In this document: positions 32,255-61,332 of the stretch, piece after piece
How positions within the stretch are numbered: the first letter of the stretch is position 1
Layout: every line of letters begins with the position of its first letter
Source of the DNA: Acidobacteriota bacterium
Lineage (GTDB): Bacteria > Acidobacteriota > UBA890 > WLXD01
Length of the DNA: 64,000 nt
NCBI GenBank assembly: GCA_963666055.2
Contig: CAXWPH010000005.1
Coordinates: forward strand, 1 to 64,000
Direction: 5' to 3'
Program-made: the position numbers and the translations under genes
Notes under the pieces: model-generated
What the model was told of the DNA's origin: nothing
Database searches by the model: none
Seen by the model: the letters and a program-made list of their open reading frames with translations, nothing else

Positions 32255-32306
32255 GGGTTCCTCCAGTTCGGGATCCGTCAAGATACCAGCTCGGCGTCGA
32301 AGGACA

Positions 32307-32585
32307 CTAGCAGGCCGTGGTGAAAGTGTGGTGGGTCTGGTTACGGCGAGTTGAGGCCAGATGCAAGGCGGCCTGACACTGGCGATGCCCCGGCCATCGT
32401 CGAGGAAGGCCAACGCCGCAAATGGCCCCAAATCGCCGTAACCCTTCTGGCGACAGAGGGTTGCGCGCGCATGCTGCGTCGTTCCTCGTCAACGATGGGG
32501 TACCCATCGCCTCCTCCTCTCTTCTTGCCTCCACTTCGCAAGACCCTGTCACCAGATCCACCACACTTTCACCACGGCCTGCTAG
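32307..32585 (+). mobile_element. MITE copy A (279 bp, 34-bp TIRs including CTAG)
   Basis: CTAGCAGGCCGTGGTGAAAGTGTGGTGG(G/A)TCTGG at both ends; no transposase; further copies in the window. Confidence 0.9.
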
Positions 32586-34381
32586 CTCCCTTCGACGTAC
32601 CCCGGGCCGCGCACCACCATGCCCGGACGCGCTCCCGTGATGCGTCCCTGGTCGACCACGATCTGCCCGTTGACCAGCACGTATTCCACCCCTTCCGAGT
32701 AGCGGTGCGGTTGAGCATAGGTGGACCTGTCGACAATGGTCTCCGGATCGAAGATCACGATGTCGGCGTAGGCCCCCACCCGAAGAGTCCCCCGATGGCG
32801 GATTCCGAGCCGCTGAGCCGGTAGGGAAGTGGCCTTGCGGATGGCCTCCTCGAGGCTGATGTCGCCAAGCTCCCGTACGTAGCGCCCGAGGATCCTGGCG
32901 TAGGTTCCGTAGGATCTGGGGTGAACGAGCCGATCCGACAGCGGCCCGTCGACGGCCGCGAGCCCACCGTCCGTACCTATCGCAACCCAGGGCTGCCGCA
33001 GGGCAAGGCGCATGTCGTCCTCATCGGTGAGGTGCGAGACGAAGCCGGCGGCGCCCGTCTGGACTATGTCCATGATCACGTCGCGCGCGTCTTTCCCCTG
33101 TTCGGCGGCGATATCCGCGAGGCTTTGCCCCTCTAGGTGCTTGAGTTCCGTATTGCCACCGACGTCGGTGATGACGAAGCCCTCGGCGCCGCCGACCCCG
33201 TAGTATTCGTTCTCCCACTCCGTCGAGGGGATCTCGAGCTCGCGCTTGATGCGTTCGCGGGTCGACGGATCCGCCAGGCGCTGTCTGATCTCCTCGCTGC
33301 TTCCCTGGCGCGCCCAGGGAGGAAGCAGGGCGCGCAGGCCGGCTGCACCCCAGAGATACGGATACACGTCTGCGGCAACGTCGAGGCCTTGCTGACGGGC
33401 GGCGGCGATGCGCTCGACAACCTCAGACATCTCGCCCCAGTTCTGCACATACGCTGCCTTCAGGTGGGTGATGTGGGCTCGGATATCGGCCTCTCGAGCG
33501 ATGCGGAACACCTCCTCGAGCGAGGCGAAAAGCGCATCGCCTTCGCTGCGCTGGTGCGTCTGATACGCACCGCCGTATCGAGACGCGACGCGTGCCAGAG
33601 CGATCAGCTCCTCGGTGCTGTTGAACCGGTCGGGCACGTACATCAGTGCCGAGTAGATGCCGAGGGCGCCATCCTCCATGGCCTCGGCAGTAAGCCGCTC
33701 CATCTCCGCGAGCTCGGTGGCGGTCGCGGGGCGGTCTACCGTGCCGATGACCAACTCGCGGAGCGTCGACGTGCCCACGTAAGTCGCGAAGTTCAGGGTC
33801 GGTGGATTGGCCTCCAGTCGCGCGAAGAAATCGTCGAGTGTTCGCCAGTCGGGATCGATTCCGAAGCGCTCGAACCGCCCCATTCTCTCGGCGAGGTGCG
33901 CATCGCTGGTGGGGGCGACTGAGCTGCCTTCTCCTTCGACCAGCAGGGTGATGCCCTGCGTTACCGCGCTGGCGGCGCGTGGATCGACCAGCAGATACCA
34001 AGACGAGTGGCTGTGCATGTCGATGAAGCCGGGGGCAACGATCTTGTTGTCGGCGTCGATCGAACGGGTGGCTGCCATGCCTGCCAGGTTGCCGATCGCG
34101 GCGATGTGCCTATCGCGAATGCCAACGTCGCCCCGGTACCACGGATTTCCGCTGCCATCGACGATGCGTGCGTTGCTGATTAACAGGTCAAAGGAGCTGG
34201 CCTGCGTTGCCTGTTCGGTCGGTGTACAGGCACCGGGCAACAGAGCCCCGACCATCAGCAGAACCGCCGCGACTCGGGTTGTCGGGTTGCCCAGCCGCTG
34301 TGATGGAGCTGATGCCCTCGACCCCGCTCGACGTTTGATCAAGCTCCACCAAAGCGCTAGCAGGAACCGCTCGTCGCGCAC
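32582..34381 (-). CDS. N-acyl-D-amino-acid deacylase (D-aminoacylase)
   Basis: PGFIDMHSHS; HPRSYGTYARILG; stop TAG lies in the MITE CTAG; start uncertain. Confidence 0.92.
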   Translation of the reverse strand: MRDERFLLALWWSLIKRRAGSRASAPSQRLGNPTTRVAAVLLMVGALLPGACTPTEQATQASSFDLLISNARIVDGSGNPWYRGDVGIRDRHIAAIGNLAGMAATRSIDADNKIVAPGFIDMHSHSSWYLLVDPRAASAVTQGITLLVEGEGSSVAPTSDAHLAERMGRFERFGIDPDWRTLDDFFARLEANPPTLNFATYVGTSTLRELVIGTVDRPATATELAEMERLTAEAMEDGALGIYSALMYVPDRFNSTEELIALARVASRYGGAYQTHQRSEGDALFASLEEVFRIAREADIRAHITHLKAAYVQNWGEMSEVVERIAAARQQGLDVAADVYPYLWGAAGLRALLPPWARQGSSEEIRQRLADPSTRERIKRELEIPSTEWENEYYGVGGAEGFVITDVGGNTELKHLEGQSLADIAAEQGKDARDVIMDIVQTGAAGFVSHLTDEDDMRLALRQPWVAIGTDGGLAAVDGPLSDRLVHPRSYGTYARILGRYVRELGDISLEEAIRKATSLPAQRLGIRHRGTLRVGAYADIVIFDPETIVDRSTYAQPHRYSEGVEYVLVNGQIVVDQGRITGARPGMVVRGPGYVEGS

Positions 34382-38249: not shown

Positions 38250-38262
38250 CGCCGCGCCGAAC

Positions 38263-38414
38263 CGCCGTAACCCTTCGGGCGACAGGGGGTTGCGCGCGTA
38301 TGCTGCGTCGTTCCTCGTCAACGATGGGGTACCCATCGCCTCCTCCTCTCTTCTTGCCTCCACTTCGCAAGACCCTGTCGCCAGATCCACCACACTTTCA
38401 CCACGGCCTGCTAG
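38263..38414 (+). mobile_element. half MITE (right portion)
   Basis: near-identical to about 32434-32585; left half absent. Confidence 0.85.
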
Positions 38415-38548
38415 CCCCGTTTGCCCAACGGTGTGGGTGCCCACCCGCAACCAGGCTACCTATTGGCGCCGCCGGGCTCAACGCGTTTGGAACGTCGGCC
38501 TGCAGTCTGCACTTCGGCCTCGATATCCCGGTGCTCGCGTGGTCGTGC

Positions 38549-44917: not shown

Positions 44918-44992
44918 GCCTGGTTACCCCATTCGCTACGCCAAATTATCAGGAATTGAGGGCATGCTATCGTGCAGGGCCGACACGCCGAC

Positions 44993-45270
44993 CTAGCAGG
45001 CCGTGGTGAAAGTGTGGTGGGTCTGGCGACAGGGTCTTGCGAGGTGGAGGCAAGGAGAGAGGAGGAGGCGATGGATACCCCATCGTTGACGAGGAACGAC
45101 GCAGCATACGCGCGCAACCCCTGTCGCCCGAAGGGTTACGGCGATTTGGGGCCATCTGCAGCGTTGGCCTTCCTCGACGATGGCTAGGGCATCGCCTGTG
45201 TCAGGCCGCCTTGCATCTGGCCCCAACTCGCCGTAACCAGACCCACCACACTTTCACCACGGCCTGCTAG
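44993..45270 (-). mobile_element. MITE copy B (278 bp, inverted relative to copy A)
   Basis: same TIRs and CTAG ends; interior highly similar to copy A. Confidence 0.9.
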
Positions 45271-45285
45271 CGGCGCGGAGGATCC

Positions 45286-49035: not shown

Positions 49036-49749
49036 TTGACGTCCCGCGCACTGCTGTTCGACCTCGACAACACCCTCTACCACTACACCCCCTGCGACGA
49101 AGTGGCGCTGGTTGCGACGCGGGCGGTGCTTGCGCAGCACATCGACATCTCGGCCGCCGAGTTTCGGCGACTCCACGACCGCGTTCGTAGCGAGCTCGCG
49201 GAGCGCCTGGGCGGCCAGGCCGCGTCCCACAATCGCACCTTGTTCTTCAAGTCCATGGTCGAGCAACTTACCGGGGCGTGCGGCGGTGATCTCGCCTTGC
49301 GCATGTCCGACCGTTACTGGGAGACTTTTCTCGACTACATGAAGCCCGCGCCCCGCACCCGCGGTGTTCTGGAGAGCCTTGGCGCGAGGCACGATCTGGC
49401 GCTGGTCGTCAACCAAACGGCATATGTCCAGCTGAGGAAGATCCAGCGGCTCGGAATCGAGCGCCACTTCCCGGTGGTGGTAACGAGCGAGGAATGCGGC
49501 GCCGAGAAACCGGACGCGCGCGTGTTTCAGAGAGCCCTGAGCGCGCTGGGCGTCGAGGCGGCCGCGGCGGTGATGATCGGTGATGATCCACACTGCGATA
49601 TCCGCGGCGCCTCCGATCTCGGGATCTCAACGGTTCAGACGACGGAGTTCACCGGCGCGCGCCTCGGGGACGACCAGGTCGGCGCCGGACCCGACGACGT
49701 TATCGGCTCGCTAGGCGAGCTTCCGGAAGTGCTGTCCCGCCTTTCCTGA
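49036..49749 (+). CDS. HAD family hydrolase
   Basis: FDLDNTL, EKPD, MIGDD. Confidence 0.92.
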   Translation: MTSRALLFDLDNTLYHYTPCDEVALVATRAVLAQHIDISAAEFRRLHDRVRSELAERLGGQAASHNRTLFFKSMVEQLTGACGGDLALRMSDRYWETFLDYMKPAPRTRGVLESLGARHDLALVVNQTAYVQLRKIQRLGIERHFPVVVTSEECGAEKPDARVFQRALSALGVEAAAAVMIGDDPHCDIRGASDLGISTVQTTEFTGARLGDDQVGAGPDDVIGSLGELPEVLSRLS

Positions 49750-49813
49750 GATGCGCCGGACTCAAAATCCGGTGGGCTTACGCTCGTGAGGGTTCGAGTC
49801 CCTCCCTCGGTAC
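49749..49813 (+). pseudogene. 5'-truncated tRNA-Leu(CAA), left att site
   Basis: anticodon arm CCGGA-CTCAAAA-TCCGG, long variable arm, T arm GAGGGTTCGAGTCCCTC; 5' acceptor strand missing. Confidence 0.8.
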
Positions 49814-49928
49814 TTTTGTTTTCAACAACTTACACAGATTCATTCCTTGCCGGCTCACCATCTCGTTGATCGCTATCGGGGCGAAGGGTGAGGTGCAACC
49901 CCGTGATTGAACGTGGGCTGCTCAAGCG

Positions 49929-49992
49929 GGATAACGGACACTCGCTTAAGCTGCAGCGCGAAGCGCTGTCAGTCTTCAAGCGATTGTTAGGC
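49929..49992 (-). other. integron attC site
   Basis: minus strand GCCTAAC-AATCG-CTTGAAGACTGACAGCGC-TTC-GCGCTGCAGCTTAAGCGAGTGTCC-GTTATCC: RYYYAAC...GTT ends and imperfect palindrome. Confidence 0.85.
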
Positions 49993-50803
49993 CGCTGCAC
50001 CTTCTTGATCCGGGCACCAACGCCACGTACGCCCCCACTGGATCCTGAAGCACCGCATATGCGTACCCCCGATCGTTCGCCGGTGTCTCCTTGATGATCT
50101 TACCCCCTTCCTGCGGTACGCGACGGAGACTTTCGGCGAGGTCGCCAACGGGGAGGTAGAGCATCCAGACAGGCGGCACATCCAGGTTCACGCCGCGGGC
50201 ATGGCAGACGCCCGCCGCGGCGTTTCCATCATCGCCGAGCATATTGTAGTCGGCGTAGCGCTTGCTCGCGTCGTCCATCTCGACGTCCTTCGCGCTCCAG
50301 CCAACGACCTGTCCGTAGAACTCACGAGTTGCCGTGGCGTCAGATACCGTCAAGTCGAGCCAGGCGACGCATCCCACAGGCGCCGACGGGTCGCGAGATG
50401 CGGCGCCGTCTGATGCGGAAATTTCGTCCGCAGAAACGACTGGAATGATCCCGAACGCCGCCCCATTGGGATCGAGCAGCACCGCCCACTGGCTCTTTCC
50501 ATCGTCGTCCTTGCCATGCATGAGCTCGCTCCCGCCCAGACCCAGGGCACGCTCAACACTCGTTGCGACATCATCGACCTGAATGTGCGGCATCCATTGG
50601 AGCGGGAGCATCTCATGCTCCGTGCTACGCGCGCCCAATCCGATGATCGGCATGCCGAGGTTGTTCATTAGATCCTCGCGCCAAAGCGGGCTCTCACCCG
50701 TGCTGAGTACACGCGAGTAGAAGCGCACTTCACGTTCGTGTTCGGGAACGGCGATGTCGGCGCTGAGGACTCCGCCGACGCGTGGAGCAAAGGGGTCACT
50801 CAT
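49976..50803 (-). CDS. two-domain VOC/glyoxalase protein, integron gene cassette
   Basis: WMPHIQVDDV, DPNGAAFG, WLDLTV, DPVGA; flanked by GTTAGGC and attC. Confidence 0.9.
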   Translation of the reverse strand: MSDPFAPRVGGVLSADIAVPEHEREVRFYSRVLSTGESPLWREDLMNNLGMPIIGLGARSTEHEMLPLQWMPHIQVDDVATSVERALGLGGSELMHGKDDDGKSQWAVLLDPNGAAFGIIPVVSADEISASDGAASRDPSAPVGCVAWLDLTVSDATATREFYGQVVGWSAKDVEMDDASKRYADYNMLGDDGNAAAGVCHARGVNLDVPPVWMLYLPVGDLAESLRRVPQEGGKIIKETPANDRGYAYAVLQDPVGAYVALVPGSRRCSGLTIA

Positions 50804-50869
50804 GGTTTGACCTTCTCGAAGAATCGTGCCGGGTGAGGTCACACTTCGTGTCGGTTTGATCCGGGGTCG

Positions 50870-51052
50870 GCCTAACTAGTATTCGACTGCATTCATCGAT
50901 CCGCCATGGTTGACGATTCCCGCGTCTAACGCAACGGCCACGAGAGCTCCAAGTTACTGAGTGGAAAGGAATTGAACGGTCATGGCGAGGACGGCTGGCT
51001 GCGAGGTCCGCGGCTAAGGATCCCGGCGGAAACTCGGGGCGCTCGCGTCTAA
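50870..51052 (-). other. attI-like site
   Basis: GCAGTCGAATACTA-GTTAGGC core at 50870-50876; three TTAG(A/C)CGCG repeats at 50921, 51009 and 51044; directly after the intI remnant. Confidence 0.6.
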
Positions 51053-51136
51053 GCGTCTTCGAGTTCATCGGCCGGGCTGACCACACCTCGGCCTTTGTTC
51101 AGGACGTGGGGTGTAGATAATCGTCGTCTTGGACAG
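51049..51136 (-). pseudogene. intI: integron integrase C-terminal remnant
   Basis: LSKTTIIYT (+1 frameshift) HVLNKGRGVVSPADELEDA*, matching the IntI TTxIYTHVLNxGxxGVxSPxD tail. Confidence 0.8.
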
Positions 51137-51157
51137 GGTACGATTCGGACCGTCGAG

Positions 51158-51441
51158 GAAGTCCTGCTCCTCCCGCATCGACTGGGTAACCAGTGGAAAC
51201 TAGTCGGGTGACGAGCGCTAGCGAGGAGCCAACCAGTCCCCCCTGCTTGTCGGCGCCGATGTTGTCCGCAGGAGCGAAGCGACGAGGACTAGCCCCTCAG
51301 GGCTACAACATCGAGAGCCAGACTTCGGCCCTTTTGGTCGGAAGGTGCGAGCGTGCGAGCTCCTGACGATCCCGACAGCCGTCGAAACGATAGGAAGCGG
51401 AAAAGGGGCGAAAGTCGGGCTCGTGCCCGACAAGCAGGGGG
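51158..51441. repeat. multi-hairpin non-coding element, copy 1
   Basis: homologous to 56526-56705; nested inverted repeats; 15-bp perfect IR 51239-51253/51427-51441. Confidence 0.75.
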
Positions 51442-51562
51442 AACCCGTAAATGCCTATCCCACAAGGGTTTTGTGGGAACCCCTACCCCTACAAACCCTA
51501 GACAACTCCGCCTTCGGAGCCAGGAAACTTTCACACTTACTTACACATTCGCGTGACGAACA

Positions 51563-51618
51563 GGACTCAAAATCCGGTGGGCTTACGCTCGTGAGGGTTC
51601 GAGTCCCTCCCTCGGTAC
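51563..51618 (+). repeat. tRNA-Leu 3' fragment, right att site
   Basis: begins inside the anticodon stem. Confidence 0.85.
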
Positions 51619-51622
51619 TTTT

Positions 51623-51651
51623 GTTTTCAACGACCTATGGTTGTTGAAAAC
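51623..51651. terminator. terminator-like hairpin after the tRNA fragment
   Basis: GTTTTCAACGACC-TAT-GGTTGTTGAAAAC. Confidence 0.5.
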
Positions 51652-51712
51652 CAGCGGCGCCCGCTGACTTCTACCAGATAGGCACGAGGTCCGGAGCGTA
51701 CGCCATCGGTCG

Positions 51713-53479
51713 TTAGCGGACACCTGGGAGCGAAATCCTCTCTTCACGGATCTCATGTACGACCCTACCGTCGAAGACCGTCATGTCAGTGCGGACTTTG
51801 TGGATCTCGAGCTCCGGTACTGCGAAGAGGTTCTTCTCGAGAACGACGAGGTCTGCCAGCTTGCCGACCTCGATCGAGCCTCGCTCCAGCTCATCGAAGG
51901 ACAGGTATGCACCGGAGATCGTGTAGGCGGCGATCGCCTCCGCCAGGGTGATCCTCTCGTTCGGTGCCCAGGACTCGTCGGTTTGGCCGTAGGTATCGAC
52001 TCCGCCGAGGTGTCTGCGCGTGACCGCAACCTCGAGCCCGTCCAAAGGGCGCAATGAGGTCACAGACCAGTCGGTTCCCCACACGAGTCGGGCACCGGCC
52101 TGCAGGAGCGTGCGGTGGTTGTAGACCCGTTGAGCCCGATCCGCTCCGAGGTGTCTCAAGTTGTAGATAGCCGTCCAATCATCGCCCTTGCCCCAGAAGG
52201 GTGTCATGTTCGCGGCCACCCCCAACAGGCGCAGACGCGGTACGTCGGCCGGATCGATCAGTTGCACATGCGCCATGTTGTGGCGCGCGTCGCGCGGGCC
52301 ATTGGCCCGGCGAACGGCCTCGAACGCATCGAGAGATTCCCGCACCGCCCGATCACCGATGGCATGGATCTGGACCTGGAAGCCCTCTCGGTCAAGACGC
52401 GTGACCACCCGTTTCAGCCGTTCCGCTTCAACATGGGGTTCGTAGACAACGGGTTGGTCGCTGTATGGCTCGAGGAGTGCTCCGGTGCGTTGCTCGATGA
52501 TGCCGTCGTTGCCGATCTTGATACAGGTCGCTCGGAGGTTGCCTGAGGAGAGTTCCTGGCGCCGAGCGATGAACTCCCGGATCTGCTCCTCGTCATCACG
52601 GGAAGGGCTGTAGCGCTGGCAGGTCACGGCCCGCAGGTTCATCTCGCCAGCGCTCAGCAGACGCGCGTAGAGTCGCTCCCCCTCCGCCGAGGATGAAGCG
52701 TCGTGGATCGAGGTGATCCCGAGACGAGTGAACTCGGTGAAGGCGCGCCGCAAGCCATCGACGCGTTCCTGATCTGTTGCCGGCGGCATGTGGCGGCGCA
52801 CGAGACCCTGTGCGCTGTCGATCAATAGGCCTGTCGGCTCGCCGTTCTCGTCGCGCCTGATGATGCCGTTGACTGGGTCGGGCGTTGCCGCTGTGATGCC
52901 GGCGATCTCCAAGGCACGGCTGTTCACCCAAGCGGCGTGCGTGCCGGAAAAGGTCAGGTAAGCAGGTCGATCGGTGACAATCTCATCGAGCATGTAGCGA
53001 TCCGGGTTCCCGGAAGGCTTGAAGGCGTCTGCTTCCCAGCCACGACCGACGATCCAATCGAGCTCGGGATGAGCCTGCGCGTATTCTTCGAGGAGGCGAA
53101 AGACCTCGTCTCGATCAAAGACACCGTTGAGCCGAATCCGGCCCAGGCCGGCCCCCCCACCGGCCGGGTGAACATGTGAATCCTGGAAACCGGGCAACAT
53201 CATGCGGCCGCGAAGGTCGACGACCGGTGTTCCAGCGCCGACGAACGGCACCGCACCGTCGTCAGTGCCTACGTAGACGATGCGGTTGCCCGCGACAGCT
53301 ACTGCCGAGGCCCAACTGCGCGCAGCATCGACCGTGTAGATCGCACCATTGCGAAATACCAGGTTCGCTACCTGACGCCCGTTGTGCTCCCCGATTGGCC
53401 CATCGTTCGCCGGAAGAACCGGTGTCGCGGGGGCCACAACAAGCAACAGGCTCAGCGCCGTCCTAGCCGTGAAACTCAT
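51713..53479 (-). CDS. secreted amidohydrolase (Amidohydro_3/YtcJ-like)
   Basis: PGFQDSHVH, HAIGDRA, GTDW, GKLADLVVL. Confidence 0.92.
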   Translation of the reverse strand: MSFTARTALSLLLVVAPATPVLPANDGPIGEHNGRQVANLVFRNGAIYTVDAARSWASAVAVAGNRIVYVGTDDGAVPFVGAGTPVVDLRGRMMLPGFQDSHVHPAGGGAGLGRIRLNGVFDRDEVFRLLEEYAQAHPELDWIVGRGWEADAFKPSGNPDRYMLDEIVTDRPAYLTFSGTHAAWVNSRALEIAGITAATPDPVNGIIRRDENGEPTGLLIDSAQGLVRRHMPPATDQERVDGLRRAFTEFTRLGITSIHDASSSAEGERLYARLLSAGEMNLRAVTCQRYSPSRDDEEQIREFIARRQELSSGNLRATCIKIGNDGIIEQRTGALLEPYSDQPVVYEPHVEAERLKRVVTRLDREGFQVQIHAIGDRAVRESLDAFEAVRRANGPRDARHNMAHVQLIDPADVPRLRLLGVAANMTPFWGKGDDWTAIYNLRHLGADRAQRVYNHRTLLQAGARLVWGTDWSVTSLRPLDGLEVAVTRRHLGGVDTYGQTDESWAPNERITLAEAIAAYTISGAYLSFDELERGSIEVGKLADLVVLEKNLFAVPELEIHKVRTDMTVFDGRVVHEIREERISLPGVR

Positions 53480-53585
53480 CGGTGGCCTCCTCGGTCTAGT
53501 GTCAACACACATGTACCCTGCAGCGTGGCCAGGCTAGTTCCCTGACAGGTTGCCGTCCAGGGCTGCCGTCGGTGGCTGACCCAGA

Positions 53586-56192
53586 CTACCGCTGCATCGT
53601 GAAAGTGAACTTAGCGGTGAGCGTGCGGTCGTCCAGGCGGTCGAACAGCCCTCCGAATGCCGTCGACTGCCGGTACACGAGGTAGAAGTCGTCGCCGGTG
53701 CGGTAGATGTAGCGCAACCGTACGAACGCTGATAGCTGGTCGGAGTCGCTGCTGTGTTGTAGCAGCGAGTCGACCAGCACGCGGTCGGAAAACGTCAGGT
53801 TGGCGCGTATCCGCCTCAGGTGGGTGTCGAAGCTGTCGCCGGGCAGATGGATGCGGTTGAAGCTGTACTGGGGGCTCAGGTTGAAGCGATCGCTGAACTT
53901 GAAGCTGGGCCCTCCGCCAATCCCGAAGCGGGTGCCGTCGTAGAACTCGCCCAGGTTGAAGGTAAGGTTGCCGCTCACCGCACGACGGGGAGCGGCGCGC
54001 AGGCTGATCTGGCCGTCGGTCCAGGAGTACTCGCCGATCGGAATGGTGACGTTCTCGTCGATTGGGAAATCGGTATCCAACAGCTCGTAGTTGCGGCTAA
54101 CGCGGAAACGCACGACGTCATTGGACTCCAGATCCAACTGCGTGCTCAGGCTCCCCAGCCGCGAGACCAATCGGCCACTGGTGTCCGTAATGCGCTCCAA
54201 TGAAGGGCTCACCGACACCCGCCGCATTAGCGGCCAGCTCGGGCGCGTCGACCAGCGCCCCTGGTATTTGTAGCGCACGATGTCCTGCCGCAGGATGAAG
54301 CCGAGATCGCTGTCAAAGTCGTCGGCCACATAGGTGACATCGCCTCCGAGTCCCCACGCTTCGGTGTCCCACCCGGCGCTGAGCTGCCCCACCCAGGAGG
54401 TGCCATCGATGTCGTTGTCCTGGCCACCGGCCACGAACCCCGACAGGAACAAGTGGTTGAACAGTATGAGATTGGTGTCGACGCCGAACACGCGATTGTA
54501 CTGGCCGTCGCGACCCTGGACGTTTGTGACCAGCGCGCCGACACTGGATCGATCAAGAACCGACTGCTTCCAGCGGAAGGCGGTGTAGTTCTGCCCGGCG
54601 CCGAACTGTGAGTCCCCGGTCTGTACGTTGACGAAACCGAGGTTGCCGCTGCCGATCGTCCCCGTTAGCTTGCCGCCGTAGCGAATCGGTACCGGCTGCC
54701 CCTCGGGCCCCAGGCCAATGCGACGCGAGAAGAACAGCAGTGCCAGCGGCGGTTGCCGCTGGAAGCCGCCGCCGCCCCCTGCCACACCCCGACGACTGAG
54801 CGTGCCGAAGGTGAAGTTGTCGGCAGCCTCCAGGAAGAACTCGCGTTGCTCCGGAAAGAACAGCGAGAAGCGCGTCAGGTTGACCTGCTGGGTGTCGGCC
54901 TCGACCTCGGCGAAGTCGGTGTTCACCGTCAGGTTCGCAGTGAGGCTGGGGGTCAGTTGTACCTGAAACCTCTCGATGCCGATATCGCCCCTGCCCTCGG
55001 AGAGCGGATCGTCGCGCTGCTGGAACGAGTCGTAGCCCCCGGTCACAAAGGGCTTGAGACGGAACCGGTCGGTGAGCGCCAGCTCCTGCAGCCCGACGAG
55101 GTTGCCGTACTGTGAGACGGCCAGCCAGTTGTAGTCGCGGCTGAGGTTGTTCCAGTTGATGCGCTCCTTGTTATGTGCAACCTCGCGCTCGAACTCGATG
55201 CCCCAGACGTTGCTGCCGGTCGGATACCGCAGCGCGGCAAAGGGGATGGCGAGCTCGGCCTCCCAGCCGCGTTCGGTGATGCTCGCGGCGGCCTCCCAGC
55301 TCTCGTCCCAGTTCATGTTGAGCTGACTCTCGTCGGTTATCGTGTAATCGAACTTGGCGCCGAGCGCGTTGACCTGAAAGCCGAAGGCGTTGCGGCGGTC
55401 GCGAAACGGGTCCAGGAAGACCGCCGCATAGTCCTCCCCGCCCATTGTCGCGTCGCGTCGCATGTCGTTGGCGACGATCTTGTCGGGTTCATCGTCGAAG
55501 TTGATCCAGCCGACGTACAGGTTGTCGTCGTCGTACAGAACGCGCACCTCGGTGCGCTTCGTCGGCGCCACGCGGTTGTCGGGATCCTTCTGGACGAAGT
55601 CGCTCACCACGTCCGCCAGCTCCCAGGCCGCGTCGTCGATCCGACCGTCGAGGACGGGGGGCGTGTTTGTCCGCGTCGCGGCAGCGCGTTTGCCGTCGAT
55701 GGGCAGGTCAGCCGTGAATCCCGAAGCCGCGCCTGTGTCCGTCCGCGGCACCGTGTCGCCGACGGAGTCGACGTTAGCGAGCATCAGCGTCGGGGCTTCG
55801 CTTTCTGGCGGCGTCGGGTCGTTTGCTGGCGTGATGATAGGGGCAGCCGCGACCGAGGGATCGGGCATCGTGCCGGAAACCTCGGATCCGTCCGGGATCG
55901 CGCCCGGGCTCGGTGTGTCGGACGGCGGTGTCGGCGGCAGTGTCGAGGGCAACGGGACAGGGCCGGTCTCGCCGGGTCGAATCATCCGCACCGGGATGCT
56001 CCGTCGACCCTGGCGCACCGGGCTCGCAGACTCGCCGGGCTGAACGAGGCGCACCGGAATCTGCCGTCGACGCGGTTCCTGCTCGTCGCGCTGTTGCTGG
56101 GCGATCACGGCCGGGCTGGCCAGCGTCACGGCGACGGCGGCGAGAGTCAGCGCCCCGCGCCCTGCTGCACCCAGCCCCGGCGTCAGGTTCAT
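53586..56192 (-). CDS. CBM9-like/DUF5916 outer-membrane protein
   Basis: PPVLDGRIDD, TEVRVLYDDDNLY, NTDFAEVEAD, FPEQREFFLE, FSRRIG. Confidence 0.88.
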   Translation of the reverse strand: MNLTPGLGAAGRGALTLAAVAVTLASPAVIAQQQRDEQEPRRRQIPVRLVQPGESASPVRQGRRSIPVRMIRPGETGPVPLPSTLPPTPPSDTPSPGAIPDGSEVSGTMPDPSVAAAPIITPANDPTPPESEAPTLMLANVDSVGDTVPRTDTGAASGFTADLPIDGKRAAATRTNTPPVLDGRIDDAAWELADVVSDFVQKDPDNRVAPTKRTEVRVLYDDDNLYVGWINFDDEPDKIVANDMRRDATMGGEDYAAVFLDPFRDRRNAFGFQVNALGAKFDYTITDESQLNMNWDESWEAAASITERGWEAELAIPFAALRYPTGSNVWGIEFEREVAHNKERINWNNLSRDYNWLAVSQYGNLVGLQELALTDRFRLKPFVTGGYDSFQQRDDPLSEGRGDIGIERFQVQLTPSLTANLTVNTDFAEVEADTQQVNLTRFSLFFPEQREFFLEAADNFTFGTLSRRGVAGGGGGFQRQPPLALLFFSRRIGLGPEGQPVPIRYGGKLTGTIGSGNLGFVNVQTGDSQFGAGQNYTAFRWKQSVLDRSSVGALVTNVQGRDGQYNRVFGVDTNLILFNHLFLSGFVAGGQDNDIDGTSWVGQLSAGWDTEAWGLGGDVTYVADDFDSDLGFILRQDIVRYKYQGRWSTRPSWPLMRRVSVSPSLERITDTSGRLVSRLGSLSTQLDLESNDVVRFRVSRNYELLDTDFPIDENVTIPIGEYSWTDGQISLRAAPRRAVSGNLTFNLGEFYDGTRFGIGGGPSFKFSDRFNLSPQYSFNRIHLPGDSFDTHLRRIRANLTFSDRVLVDSLLQHSSDSDQLSAFVRLRYIYRTGDDFYLVYRQSTAFGGLFDRLDDRTLTAKFTFTMQR

Positions 56193-56326
56193 GAGCTATC
56201 TCTCCCCCGAGCCACCCCGCCCGCGTGAATCGGAACGGCGCCAAAGTTGGCATTCTGCCACGTCGGATGTCTAATCTGATCAAGCTCGTGGTCGCCGCCC
56301 AGACCATGACGGCCAACAGCGGACTA

Positions 56327-56356
56327 GCGCTCACCGACCGGTTCCGTCTCAAGCCC
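56327..56356. repeat. 30-bp exact inverted copy of 55050-55079
   Basis: GCGCTCACCGACCGGTTCCGTCTCAAGCCC. Confidence 0.9.
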
Positions 56357-56525
56357 GATCGGCGGGTGGCGACTACCTACCCGTGGTACTTCTAGCCGAC
56401 GGCTCGGTGGGGGCCGTCACGCCGATTCAGGACGAACGACGGGGTCGCTGGAGCTTCACCTGGTGGCGGTTCAGTCGGCGGATGCGGGTCGAATTAGTTG
56501 CTGGCGCGCGCCATCTTCTCTTGGC

Positions 56526-56705
56526 GGGACGAAGTCCTGCTCCTCCCCTATCGACTGGGTAACCCGTGGAAACCAGTCGAGCGATTCGCATCAGCGATCG
56601 CTAACAAGTCCCCCAGCTGTCGGAGCCGATGTTGTCCGCAGGAGCGGAGCTCCGAGGACTAGCCCCAACAGGGCTACAACTTCGAGAGCCAGACTTCGTC
56701 CCTTT
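56526..56705. repeat. multi-hairpin non-coding element, copy 2
   Basis: homologous to 51158-51335; closed by an 11-bp IR GGGACGAAGTC/GACTTCGTCCC. Confidence 0.75.
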
Positions 56706-56734
56706 GTGAGGCCGGTACACGGCTCGAGGAGACG

Positions 56735-58327
56735 GTGGCCGAGACCGAGCAGTGGGCGCAGCGTCGCGTCAACTTGTCCGACCTCGCGGGGCAGACGGTG
56801 TCGCTGACCCTGGAGGCGAATGCGGATCACGCCGGCAGCGTCGCGCTCTGGGGGGCACCGACCCTGAGCGGAGCCCGCACCAAGGAGACACCCAACATCA
56901 TCTTCTATGTGATCGACGGTGGTGGGGCTGACCTCATGAGCCTGTATGGCTACAACCGGCGTACCACCCCGCACCTGGTACGGATAGCCGCTGAGGGCGC
57001 GGTCTTCAACTACGCCTACAGCAACTCCACCTGGACGCGCCCCTCGACGCTGTCGTTCCTCACCTCGCTGCAGCACAGCGTGCTCGGGGGCCTCAGGAAC
57101 GGCCGCAACACGGCCCCTGAAGAGGTACTGACCATCCCACAGCACCTGCGGCGGGCCGGATACCAGACAGCCTTTTTCACGTCGAATCCCAATGCTGGCA
57201 GAATCAGCGGTCTTGATCGAGGCATCGATGTCCTCCGCGACGCGGGAGGCGGCGACAACTCCACCTCGTCCATGGAGCTGCACGGCGATTTCTGGCGGTG
57301 GCGTGCGGCGTACCCTGCCGAACCCTATTGGGTACGCTTCCAGACCACCGACGTCCACGCACCGAACACTCCGGTACCACCCTTCGCCGGCCTGTATGTG
57401 AGTCCGGATCAGCGAGCGACCTACAGGGCGTGGATGCGCCAGATCGACGCAGCCGGGGGCTCGTTCCCATACTCGGACGCCTTCGAGAAGACCGGCATCA
57501 ATCGACAGGCGTTCTTCGACGTCGCCCGCGGCCTCTACGACGAGACGATGGCGCATCAGGACTACCAGCTCGGGCGCTTCGTCGAGCGGCTGAAGGCGAC
57601 GGGGGACTGGGACAATACGCTGCTGATCGTGGCGGCGGATCGCGGGCACATCGCCGGCAGCGAGCATTTTGGTGTCGGGCTCGCCGACCCTATGCCCGCC
57701 ATGTGGGAAATCGCGATGGCGAGTTCCTACCACACGCGGGTTCCACTGGTGATCGTCTGGCCCGCTCGCATCCGCGGGGGGCAGCGGTTCGACGAACCTG
57801 TCTCGATGATCGATGTGCTGCCGACGGTTCTGGCCCTCGCGGGCTTGCCGATGCCGGATGTCATGCAAGGACAATCGCTCGCGCCTCTCTTGCTGGGCAA
57901 CGAAGGATGGGAGCCACGCCCGGTGATCCTCGATGAGTTCGACGTCGATCCCGGCACCGACGAGCTCCGAGGAACGATCGAAGTGATCGACGGGCGCTGG
58001 GCGGCGTCGCTGTTCATCGACCCACGTCCTGGCATGTCAACTCTGCCGCTCAGAGGTCATCACGACGGGCTCGCGGCCAAGAAGGCGGCATGGAATCAGC
58101 GCCCGCAGAGCGTCCCACGCCTGCTGTTGTACGACCTGTGGAGCGATCCGCGAGCCTTTTACAGCGTGCATGAGGAACACCCTGCGCTAGTCGAGCACTA
58201 CACGGCGTTCCTTGAGGCGCAGTTCGAGGCACACGAGTTGCTGGCGCAGAAGTTCACGCCAGGCGAGGATTCGCCACTGACTCCTGAGCAGCTACGGTCT
58301 CTTCGGGCACTTGGCTACATCCAGTGA
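56735..58327 (+). pseudogene. sulfatase-like hydrolase, apparently 5'-truncated
   Basis: [23 protein letters not shown]; no signal peptide or RBS; ADRG where DHG is usual. Confidence 0.7.
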
Positions 58328-58337
58328 GTTGAAGAGG

Positions 58338-61051
58338 ATGATCGGCACCAAACTAGGCCCCTACGAGATCACCGAGCAGCTCGGCGCTGGCGGTATGGGA
58401 GAGGTGTACCTGGCGCAGGACACGCGCCTGGGCCGCAAGGTGGCCATCAAGGTGCTGCCCGCCGAGTTTGCCTCTGACCCCGAGCGCCTCGCCCGCTTCG
58501 AGCAGGAGGCTCGCGCTGCCGCCGCTCTGAACCACCCTCACATCGCGGTTGTTCACGATATCGGCACCGAGGATGGCACCCACTTCATGGTGCAGGAGTA
58601 CCTGGAGGGGAACACGCTACGGGAGCCGCTACAGAAGGGTGCCCTGCCGCTCAAGAAGGCACTCGGGTTGGCCACCGAGATCGCCGAGGCACTCGCAGCA
58701 GCACACGCTGCGGGGATCATCCACCGGGATTTGAAGCCGGAGAACATCTTCGTCACCAAGGAGGGGCACGCCAAGGTGCTGGACTTCGGCCTGGCGAAGC
58801 TGACCGAGATAGCGGCAGGATCACCGCGGTGCAACGCAGTCACCCACGATGATGGGCACGGTGGCCGGTCAGGTGATGGGTACTGCCGGCTACATGGCAC
58901 CGGAGCAGGTTGAGGGCTCCGAGGAGATCGACCATCGGGCCGACTTGTTCGCCTTCGGCTGTGTGCTCTACGAGATGGCTGCGGGCAGGCAAGCATTTGC
59001 CGGTGAGAGCATCCACGACACCCTCCACCGCATCGGACACCGGGAGCCCAAGCCACTCGATGAGATCGATGACAGCCTCCCATCCCAGCTCCTTTGGATC
59101 GTCCGCAAGTCGCTCGCGAAGGAGCCGGGACGGCGCTACAGGGTGCTGATGACCTCATGGTGGACATGAAGGCATTGGCGCTTGAGGTGGAGTCGGGTGC
59201 GGCACAGCCGGTCAGCGGAGAGGCCCCGACAACCCCTGTCGCCGTGGAAACGGCTCGCGGCATCCCGTGGAAGCTGGCTGCTCCGATCGCGATTCTACTC
59301 GTGGTCGTTGCTGCACCGCTCGGCTGGTGGGCAAGGCAACCGGAGCCCAGAAGCACCATCCGCGTGCAGCTCGACCCCCTCGTCGACACGATCATGAGTC
59401 GGTTCGGCTCCGCAGTCGCGTTATCGCCCGATGGACGGCACGTTGCCTACGTCGAGGGTGACCTGTTGGATGGAAGCGCGCTGTACCTTCGCGCTCTCGA
59501 CCAGCAGGACTCGACGATACTCGCGTCGTCGGCAACCATCCTGGGTTCGCCGTACCATCCCTTCTTCTCGCCCGACGGGCAGTGGGTAGGGTTCGTCACC
59601 CAGACGGAGCTGAAAAAAGCGTCCGTAATCGGAGGCACCCCGCAGTCGATCGCGCCGGTGGACTTTAGTCGAGGTGCGGATTGGGGGCCCGACGATACGA
59701 TCGTCTTCACACCAAACCCCACCAGCGGCCTGTTTGTCGTGTCGGCTGTCGAGGGTGAGCCGGGACCGCTCACCGAGCTTTCCGGGGGCGAGCGCAGCCA
59801 CCGCTGGCCCCAGTTCTTACCCGGCGGAAAGGCAGTGCTATTCACTTCGGCCGAGACCGAAGACTTCGACAGGGCCAACCTCGAGGTCGTAGATCTCGAG
59901 ACCGGCGAGCGCCAAGTCGTGCACCGGGGCGGCACCTATGGCCGATACGTGCCGACGGGCCATCTGGTGTATTCAGACGCTGGAGCGTTGTTCGCGGTGC
60001 CCTTCGACCTCGATACCCTGGAGACGACCGGCTCGCCGATACCCGTGGTCGACAACCTCCCCGCCGACGACGCTGAAGGCGGGGTCTCGTTTGACTTCTC
60101 CGAGACCGGGATGCTCGTCTATCACATCAGAAGTGGCGGCGCTTCGGGCCGTTCCCAACTCGCCTGGGTGGAACGTGACGGCCAAGTCGAGCCGCTGCCC
60201 TTCGAGCCGCGTCCGTCTTGGTTCTTGGACCTCTCGCCGGATGACCAGCGCATCGCGCTCGAAATCCCCGGAGATGACGGGGAGTGGGACATCTGGATCT
60301 ACGAGGTCGAACGAGGAGGCAGCCAGGTGCTGCTGACCACGGAAGGCAGCAACCGAACCCCCGTTTGGTCTCCGGATGGAGAGTGGGTTTTCTTCCGATC
60401 GGATCGGAGTGGCAATGACGACATCTGGAAGCGGCGGGCTGACCGGAGTCTCGACGCCGAACTGGTGTTGGATACAGAGGCTCCCGTGTTCCCGACGTCG
60501 ATCTCGGACGACGGTGAGATGCTGCTGTTTGTGAGTGGGCTCCTCCCGAATCACGACGTGGGGATACTGGCTCTCGATACAGGTGATACGGAATTGATCC
60601 TCGATACCGCCGCCACTGAGTCTTGGCCCAGTTTCTCGCCGGACGGCCGCTTCTTCGCCTTCTTTTCGAACGAGACCGGGCAAGACGAGGTGAACGTGCG
60701 GGAAGTATCGAGCGGTCGGACGTTTCCGGCCTCTACGAGTACCCGTGGTGGCTGGTTCCCTAGCTGGTCGCGGGATGGAAGGGAGATTTACTACCGCTCC
60801 TTTAACAGCCCCGGCATCCTCGTTGCGGAAGTGGATTTGGAGTCGTTTTCCGCATCGGACCCTGTCGAACTCTCGGACATCGAAATGCGTGCCATTGGCA
60901 ACTTCGATGTCACCGCCGATGGACAGAAGTTCCTTGTGACGGTGCCCGTTGGAACTGATGAGACTGGGGCACGGCACCGGGCACACGACTCAACGTCGTC
61001 CTCAACTGGTTCGAGGAATTGAACCGGCTAGTGCCGACGGGCGGCTCCTGA
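58338..61051 (+). CDS. Ser/Thr protein kinase with PD40/TolB repeats; frameshifts near 58825, 59139 and 60975
   Basis: [44 protein letters not shown] repeats, [10 protein letters not shown]. Confidence 0.9.
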
Positions 61052-61332
61052 TGGTCGGCAAGACGCTCGGCCACTACGAGATCCTCGCCCCGCTCGGTGA
61101 AGGCGGGATGGGACAGGTGTATCGAGCCCGCGACACGACGCTGGATCGTGATGTCGCCATCAAGGTGCTGCCTGAGGACTTCGCCAGCGATGCTGGTCGG
61201 CTGGCGCTCTTCGAGCGACAGCCGGAATGGGAACTATTAGACGAGCTCCAGGACGCACGGCTCCTCGAGAGACGGCGGGTGGCGGCGCACGCTCCCCGGA
61301 ACGGACTACCTCCCGTGGTCGGCAAGACCTGA
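61051..61332 (+). pseudogene. truncated second Ser/Thr kinase (first ~55 aa only)
   Basis: [40 protein letters not shown]...FER, then unrelated sequence. Confidence 0.85.

Follow-up and report, generated by a model that had tools for sequence, protein, structure and literature searches.

The 64,000-nt window analysed here, positions 1 to 64,000 of contig CAXWPH010000005.1 (assembly GCA_963666055.2) from an uncultured marine member of the Acidobacteriota, carries two diverged copies of a noncoding, multi-hairpin element on its + strand (copy 1, 51155–51501; copy 2, 56507–56705). A first-pass annotation had recognized the pair by their common sequence and stems, and both are borne out: 51155–51334 aligns with 56528–56705 at 84% identity over 181 nt (BLAST, E 2e-45), and the stems GAAGTC/GACTTC, CGACTGG/C(C/T)AGTCG, CGATGTT/AAC(A/T)TCG and TAGCCC/GGGCTA are all present. 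The mini-hairpin indeed reads GCGAAGC in copy 1 and GCGGAGC in copy 2, and the 15-bp inverted repeat is perfect, 51239–51253 being the exact reverse complement of 51427–51441. What that account of an element in two copies left out is that both are truncated pieces of a longer element, about 420 nt at full length as judged by homologue alignments, and that tRNA-Leu halves surround copy 1. A complete copy lies on a JGI metagenome contig (L016), and a nearly complete one in a relative of the same genus (G003), which has two copies, A and B, 1.9 kb apart; a further genome (G004) retains only the 55-nt left end, with the same intI/VOC cargo as the window. Alignments with G003 and L016, together with the folds, put copy 1 about 8 nt short at the left and about 70 nt short at the right, where it breaks after CCCTAG. 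Copy 2 aligns with an intact left end and an internal cut after the three-way junction. Type 1 (copy 1, G003 copy B and L016) is 93–99% identical over the shared core; type 2 (copy 2 and G003 copy A) is 93% identical within itself and 82–83% to type 1, and has Watson–Crick pairs in place of tandem G.A. No third copy was found by BLAST, nhmmer or a covariance model in the 5.7-Mb host genome (G000, 95.7% complete). Reading frames are not preserved between copies, which rules out a coding remnant and disposes of the worry, voiced in the first pass, that the homologues might be plain coding fragments. An HDV-like ribozyme was likewise ruled out by eye, the required pairing being absent and the motif missing from type 2.

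Copy 1 sits inside a 1.8-kb unit between two tRNA-Leu(CAA) 3′ halves, in the order left arm, VOC cassette, intI remnant, element, and right arm with short direct repeats. The left attachment (att)-like boundary (49749–49832, +; direct repeat D6) consists of the 3′ two-thirds of tRNA-Leu(CAA) with its left-arm flank, and matches the intact tRNA-Leu(CAA) of the host genome (contig C15, position 521264) at 98% over 66 nt; no intact tRNA was found in the window itself. The cargo (49901–50932, −) is a VOC/glyoxalase gene (49976–50842; Pfam Glyoxalase_6) between attC-like sites, their ends recognized by eye, and recurs in G004. A frameshifted remnant of the integron integrase C-terminus (51049–51154, −), aligned by eye with the intI C-terminus on contig C10 of the host genome, is deletion-fused to the element's left end, so that copy 1 does adjoin a broken intI as originally reported. 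The right att-like boundary (51502–51637, +) comprises the right arm, with its short direct repeats (51529–51547), and the second tRNA-Leu(CAA) 3′ half (51555–51620). Copy 1 is enclosed as an islet by repeated tRNA 3′ parts in direct orientation, accompanied by arm-type repeats; for copy 2, no right att was found nearby within the window. The cut end of copy 2 is joined to a 5′-truncated sulfatase (56706–58327, +; Pfam Sulfatase) that has about 320 N-terminal codons fewer than its paralogue, again in keeping with the first description. The noncoding stretch before copy 2 also holds a 33-bp inverted copy (56324–56356, 97%) of 55050–55082, a segment inside the neighbouring DUF5916 gene; it starts at CTAG.

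Other copies occupy comparable sites. In G003 an intact tRNA-Leu(CAA) is followed, over about 30 kb, by eight tandem 3′ halves that each enclose one or a few cargo genes, and copies A and B lie inside the same array. This integron-like att array (contig C33, about 505000–535100; loci L074, L009 and L010) bears several different types of arm repeat. No integrase or Rep was found among the array open reading frames (ORFs) scanned (11 of L009, 13 of L074); the remaining L009 ORFs resemble IS3 transposases and enzymes. The complete copy of L016 ends 230 nt upstream of a tRNA-Met 3′ half. Taken together, three of the five copies sequenced (window copy 1, G003 copy B, L016) are followed on the same strand by a tRNA 3′ half that begins 50–230 nt beyond their end. 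Copies in runs X11 and X12 continue into a right arm of the G003 copy B type. Because the window islet, G003 islet B and the G004 fragment have common arms and cargo, they probably represent one inherited insertion rather than independent events. Copies or 3′ halves of tRNA-Met with the downstream arm of L016 also occur in the host genome (C7:13050, C5:65840, C7:130100, C11:7200 and C14:334340), which suggests a second att-array system at tRNA-Met. Just past the window, at 65608–65685 of C5, ARAGORN calls a tRNA with a CUA anticodon directly adjoining a tRNA-Met half, possibly the degenerate remnant of an att site.

The first-pass description, with a broken gene beside each window copy, implied a link between element and genes. 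As a mechanism of insertion or gene capture this link is not supported, since the junctions fall at different internal points in different copies: in G004 the element is cut beyond hairpin H1, in copy 2 beyond the three-way junction, in G003 copy A beyond the long stem, and in copy 1 in the H8 loop, each time without duplication. The broken neighbours are deletion junctions, not insertion targets. Two of the four cuts (copy 1 and G004) fall at CTAG, which is the reported target of a miniature inverted-repeat transposable element (MITE) of the host genome (family D1). Members of a palindromic, CTAG-ended repeat family of about 280 bp, apparently this MITE, lie in the window at 32295–32597, 38254–38421 and 44990–45277.

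Both copies fold beyond chance (z −4.4 and −4.5, with no dinucleotide shuffle equally stable), and the element has the form characteristic of the single-strand origins of rolling-circle elements, a noncoding region of several hairpins, 150–400 nt in size and folded on one strand. The + strand is the tRNA-sense strand in every copy, and is taken as the folded strand because of the asymmetry of G.A and G.U, not because of the z-scores. Its predicted order begins with hairpins H1 (51179–51206) and H2 (51207–51230), the latter with two tandem G.A/A.G mismatches that are mostly Watson–Crick in type-2 copies. The long-range 15-bp stem (51239–51441, pairing 51239–51253 with 51427–51441) then closes the main domain. 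Within it lies a three-way junction (51257–51313), the most conserved part of the element, bearing a hairpin (51266–51288) that resembles single-strand initiation (ssi) and primosome assembly (pas) sites and stacks tandem G.A pairs beneath a C-GAA-G triloop. The main stem (51321–51416, pairing 51321–51335 with 51401–51416) encloses hairpin H4 (51336–51371; two tandem G.A mismatches), and is followed by H7 and the left half and loop of the terminal hairpin H8 (51459–51501), a speculative candidate for a nick site that is complete in G003 copy B and L016. The type 1 + strand has five tandem G.A/A.G mismatches in all; in type 2, G-C and A-T pairs replace tandem G.A/A.G. The loops are triloops of the C-GNA-G form (C-GAA-G, for example); UNCG loops are absent, and no GNRA loop is conserved. 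Tandem G.A pairs and C-GNA-G triloops, as in hairpins of the d(GCGNAGC) type, are stable in single-stranded DNA (ssDNA). Pairing potential is kept among the copies: L016 has a compensatory A-T to G-C change in H7 and a C-G to A-T change in the junction hairpin, both arms of the long stem are altered in G003 copy A with pairing kept, and one-sided changes lead to G.U. In slid controls, pairing falls from 94% to 26–43%.

The upstream anti-stem arm (51158–51163, +) is predicted to pair with 51321–51326 for just as long as the 3′ half is not available. In the 5′ prefix, the segment at 51321 has its partner upstream (P 0.74–1.00, computed as DNA), and in the full-length element downstream (0.98–1.00); a T-run follows the anti-stem. 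The GAAGTC/GACTTC stem, described in the first pass as the outer one, is therefore present, but is predicted to be replaced by the downstream partner in full-length copies. Such a predicted two-state switch would fit a displaced DNA strand and a transcript equally.

The junction hairpin recurs with little change in noncoding DNA beside rep genes of proteobacterial plasmids. Of the 23 nt of 51266–51288, 22–23 are matched in plasmids of Arsenophonus, E. coli and Yersinia, and 20 in those of Xanthomonas (18 of 26 match records). Among six plasmid matches inspected, three lie 385–551 nt from a Pfam-confirmed Rep and two upstream of a small ORF in plasmids of 4–5 kb. In the enterobacterial records the hairpin caps a longer stem, which is present in 363 PLSDB plasmids, with no listed gene beneath it in 38 of 40 rows spread over the list; in one small carrier it stands 320 nt upstream of a RepL-related ORF. 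Both flanks of this plasmid stem and its GAGC-N3-GCGA apex are common to ColE1 1309–1364, the F–G spacer of phiX174 likewise contains AGCGAAGCG, and flanks and apex also occur in pCS36-4CPA, 87–141 nt past oriV. PMC5935869 places an 82-nt ssi at roughly the stretch just past oriV of pCS36-4CPA. In excerpts of PMC3167613 and PMC5778457, which print no sequence, ssiA/pas is a hairpin for PriA primosome loading, and small enterobacterial plasmids carry ssi-like palindromes according to parts of PMC6854812 and bioRxiv 2022.12.05.519187, which may be the same sequence as the plasmid stem. Within the element, the apex on a G.A-rich stem is present in copy 1, G003 copy B and L016. ColE1-type basal flanks are absent, and the element is for this reason not classed as a ColE1-type pas. 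A 19-base form of the hairpin has 10 matches in IMG/VR against about 0.3 expected (from 70 chance matches of a 15-mer); five look noncoding, and two pairs are near duplicates. The ssi-like stem with the same apex is widespread and unannotated in enterobacterial plasmids (L042–L045, L047 and L060, besides those of PLSDB), and the 23-nt hairpin alone occurs in GC-rich noncoding patches of low-GC viral contigs (L049, L050, L052, L055 and L057). Plasmid stem and hairpin may constitute a general, searchable ssi signature.

The element as a whole is far more restricted. The Rfam scan proposed in the first pass gave no match at gathering thresholds over the window and none over either copy at E up to 10. 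Genome matches at E 0.01 came from 5 of 41 genomes, two of them 27–36 nt long and at chance level; further genome searches returned 3 of 26 and 2 of 401, a pattern 1 of 400, and the covariance model R1 2 of 26 and 1 of 150, with few candidates scored per genome. An apex pattern allowing one mismatch matched 5 of 26 genomes, the control being similar. Among the genomes searched, none beyond the genus yielded the element, and a GTDB-wide pattern, of a kind that would miss L016 and X2-type variants, returned only the two G003 copies. Whole-element BLAST against plasmids and phages gave nothing, or short chance-level pieces, and the full element was not found in eight IMG/VR pattern scans, which included patterns with no match, one with 6 matches (one inspected and coding; the model null in four scanned), one with 70, none extending, and one with 8, none extending. 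Environmental data are richer: 20 of 21 listed runs hold part of the element, and contigs on it, with further variants, were found in all eight runs examined, among them sediment, marine sediment and seawater. No RNA data set is among the holders listed, which tells neither for nor against transcription; run X2 is possibly the source sample and so not independent. Record 9 of run X2, a 1.1-kb contig, is a distant homologue that keeps the three-way-junction core and matches no other part of the element, and record 6 of run X12, on a 2.4-kb contig, is a copy with 2.1 kb of upstream DNA; these two are the best candidates for locating partner genes. A genome scan for clusters of G.A hairpins revealed no second origin, though copy 1 itself was missed at the threshold used, and none of 27 unannotated island ORFs matched PHROGs. 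A literature text search found no paper printing the element or its motif, and no ssi sequence was found in the searchable supplement text of PMC3167613, PMC2831885 and PMC6854812.

We favour, at somewhat better than even confidence, the reading that the element is an ssDNA-folding signal for lagging-strand priming, a single-strand origin (sso) or ssi, left from a small tRNA-integrating element whose rep and int genes are gone. In its favour stand the position at tRNA 3′ halves, the identity of one hairpin with a plasmid motif, features of a DNA type (tandem G.A mismatches on the + strand, C-GNA-G triloops), the PriA and tyrosine recombinases encoded by the host, and a size that agrees with known sso. 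Of the two suggestions made in the first pass, an ssDNA-acting origin or a noncoding RNA, the former is thereby favoured and narrowed to an sso/ssi of a tRNA-integrating element, and the latter is less supported. Several observations pull the other way. The plasmid matches cover 23 nt only, at E 0.03–1 each, their flanks are not common to the element, and one of the six examined falls within a gene; the identification of the ColE1 and phiX174 stretches as PriA sites (ssiA and n′-pas) is our presumption. The 11-nt apex alone is not enriched in the host genome (48 occurrences versus 52 for the reversed control), no Rep was found among the ORFs scanned beside the five noncoding IMG/VR matches, and the tandem-G.A apex is missing from both type-2 copies (copy 2 and G003 copy A), so that whatever kept type 2 did not require it. 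Fold z-scores do not tell the strands apart, and the covariation check called for at the outset gave no signal above the shuffle control (110 of 500, with five close sequences). As to adjacent genes, Pfam scans of neighbouring ORFs found no Rep, relaxase or integrase gene beside any copy, all of them in deleted islets, the sole linked transposase being an IS3 in one copy; nor were Rep_trans and Zot found in the host genome.

If the sso/ssi reading is right, what remains of the element would be its att ends, its priming signal and passenger genes only. Excision would have been performed by a tyrosine integrase acting in trans, after which the + strand would be nicked by a Rep or relaxase and displaced. 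About the first 190 nt of the element would fold with the upstream anti-stem, then switch to the main stem when the remainder has become single-stranded, and the G.A-rich arms might then be recognized by host PriA, as in primosome loading of the phiX/ColE1 type, or by another host priming system. Tandem integration and internal deletion would leave att-bounded islets and broken neighbours. The host genome does encode PriA, and has 29 tyrosine-recombinase matches, one of them beside the intact tRNA-Leu(CAA). A bolder version, which we consider rather improbable, envisages phagemid-like cassettes (att, single-strand origin, nick hairpin and one cargo gene) copied and moved by Rep and integrase in trans and stacked at tRNA 3′ ends into arrays like those of integrons; a fold switch would hold back priming until the origin had become single-stranded over its whole length, and PriA-type signals would occur far outside the Proteobacteria.

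Conceivably, the element is instead a nicking origin (double-strand origin or origin of transfer) or a packaging signal acting on ssDNA, in which nicking would occur at H8 while the G.A arms would serve as scaffold. Small and perfectly paired, H8 stands at the 3′ end, the place of the plus-strand origin in an M13-type layout; it is conserved with H7 in G003 copy B and L016, and copy 1 breaks in its loop. The breaks at CTAG in copy 1 and G004 are, however, equally explained by transposon-adjacent deletion, no cognate Rep was found, and the H8 pattern has no viral match in IMG/VR; we regard this origin as unlikely. An inovirus intergenic region is not supported either: Zot was not found in the host genome (95.7% complete), nor the full element in the eight IMG/VR pattern scans. 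We hold it to be just as doubtful, if not slightly more so, that the element acts as a structured RNA: an attenuator, the antisense-controlled leader of a lost rep or int gene, or an RNA primer. The predicted switch follows 5′-to-3′ synthesis and has a T-run after the anti-stem, one-sided changes go to G.U, and tandem G.A pairs occur in RNA too. Yet neither copy has an Rfam match, the loops are triloops rather than UNCG or conserved GNRA, and the best-conserved hairpin matches a plasmid DNA motif; that no sigma-70-like promoter or terminator was found over the element counts weakly in the same direction.

A non-autonomous transposon (a MITE, or an end of the IS91/ISCR or IS200 type) inserting into or capturing neighbouring genes would account for both window copies abutting broken genes, and a weak 12-nt terminal inverted resemblance is visible by eye in the complete copies. 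We nonetheless judge it very improbable: there are two copies only in the host genome and two in G003, clustered at tRNA att arrays; target duplications were not seen, the element is broken at four different internal points, and the only transposase linked to it is the IS3 inserted into one copy. As for novelty, the "undescribed system" of the first pass is too strong a term, for although the sequence family is uncatalogued in the searches made, its kind (ssi/sso, GEBRO-type) is known and no trans-acting partner was found. On the sequence evidence, it is best described as an uncatalogued sequence family of what appears to be an already-known kind of origin, in decaying islets.

To our knowledge, nearly all known single-strand origins come from Firmicutes and from enterobacterial plasmids, and sequence searches detect them with difficulty. 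A candidate in uncultured marine Acidobacteriota that is large, has two predicted states and carries an enterobacterial ssi-like hairpin would provide a short searchable signature and an inexpensive way to ask whether mobile DNA in different phyla has PriA-type priming signals in common. Should the islets still be mobilized in trans, single genes could be exchanged through them at tRNA arrays; if they are no more than decayed remnants, their interest is modest.

The host genome shows some further features. A conserved promoter-like motif (core TGAAGCCTATCGC) lies upstream of Ser/Thr kinase starts at 48 listed places, including window positions 2267 and 2728, many of which then carry only a short 5′ fragment of the kinase gene. 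At 58311–61332 of the window, a Ser/Thr kinase with a beta-propeller is split over three overlapping ORFs and followed by another kinase 5′ fragment, through frameshifts or assembly errors, and a run of about 26 G in noncoding DNA (2941–2966) is possibly an assembly artefact. In a prophage-like island of contig C2, next to HTH and integrase genes, the 7-bp unit CCTTCTT is repeated in tandem about 27 times (355300–355495).

Among known systems, pas sites of the ColE1/phiX174 type (ssiA, n′-pas) share with the element the GAGC-N3-GCGA apex over tandem G.A pairs and a host that has PriA. They are, in contrast, single stems of about 60–80 nt, whereas the element is multibranched and about 420 nt long, lacks the plasmid flanks, lacks the apex in its type-2 copies, and resides outside the Proteobacteria. 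The sso of rolling-circle plasmids and of ICEBs1/Tn916 comes closer in size (234–340 nt in the excerpts of PMC4595007), in its several stem-loops on one folded strand and in belonging to a tRNA-integrating element (PMC4595007, PMC5812530 and PMC5703833); the differences are that no sequence match was found, that no relaxase or Rep stands beside the element, and that its origin role is putative. GEBRO, ARRPOF and PAGEV, described in parts of PMC5737381 as structured motifs of mobile DNA of 223–349 nt with a suspected ssDNA role in replication, resemble it as large structured motifs in mobile DNA. Unlike them, the element has no Rfam match and lies at chromosomal tRNA islets, not in the plasmids and phages searched. 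At the level of the islets, the closest parallel is offered by the tandem accretion-and-deletion islands and cis-mobilizable elements (CIMEs) at tRNA genes, which form att-bounded remnant arrays devoid of an integrase. The att arrays described here fit such tandem accretion and deletion, and differ in that their units are only 0.6–5 kb long with one or two cargo genes, packed in G003 to eight att halves in about 30 kb.

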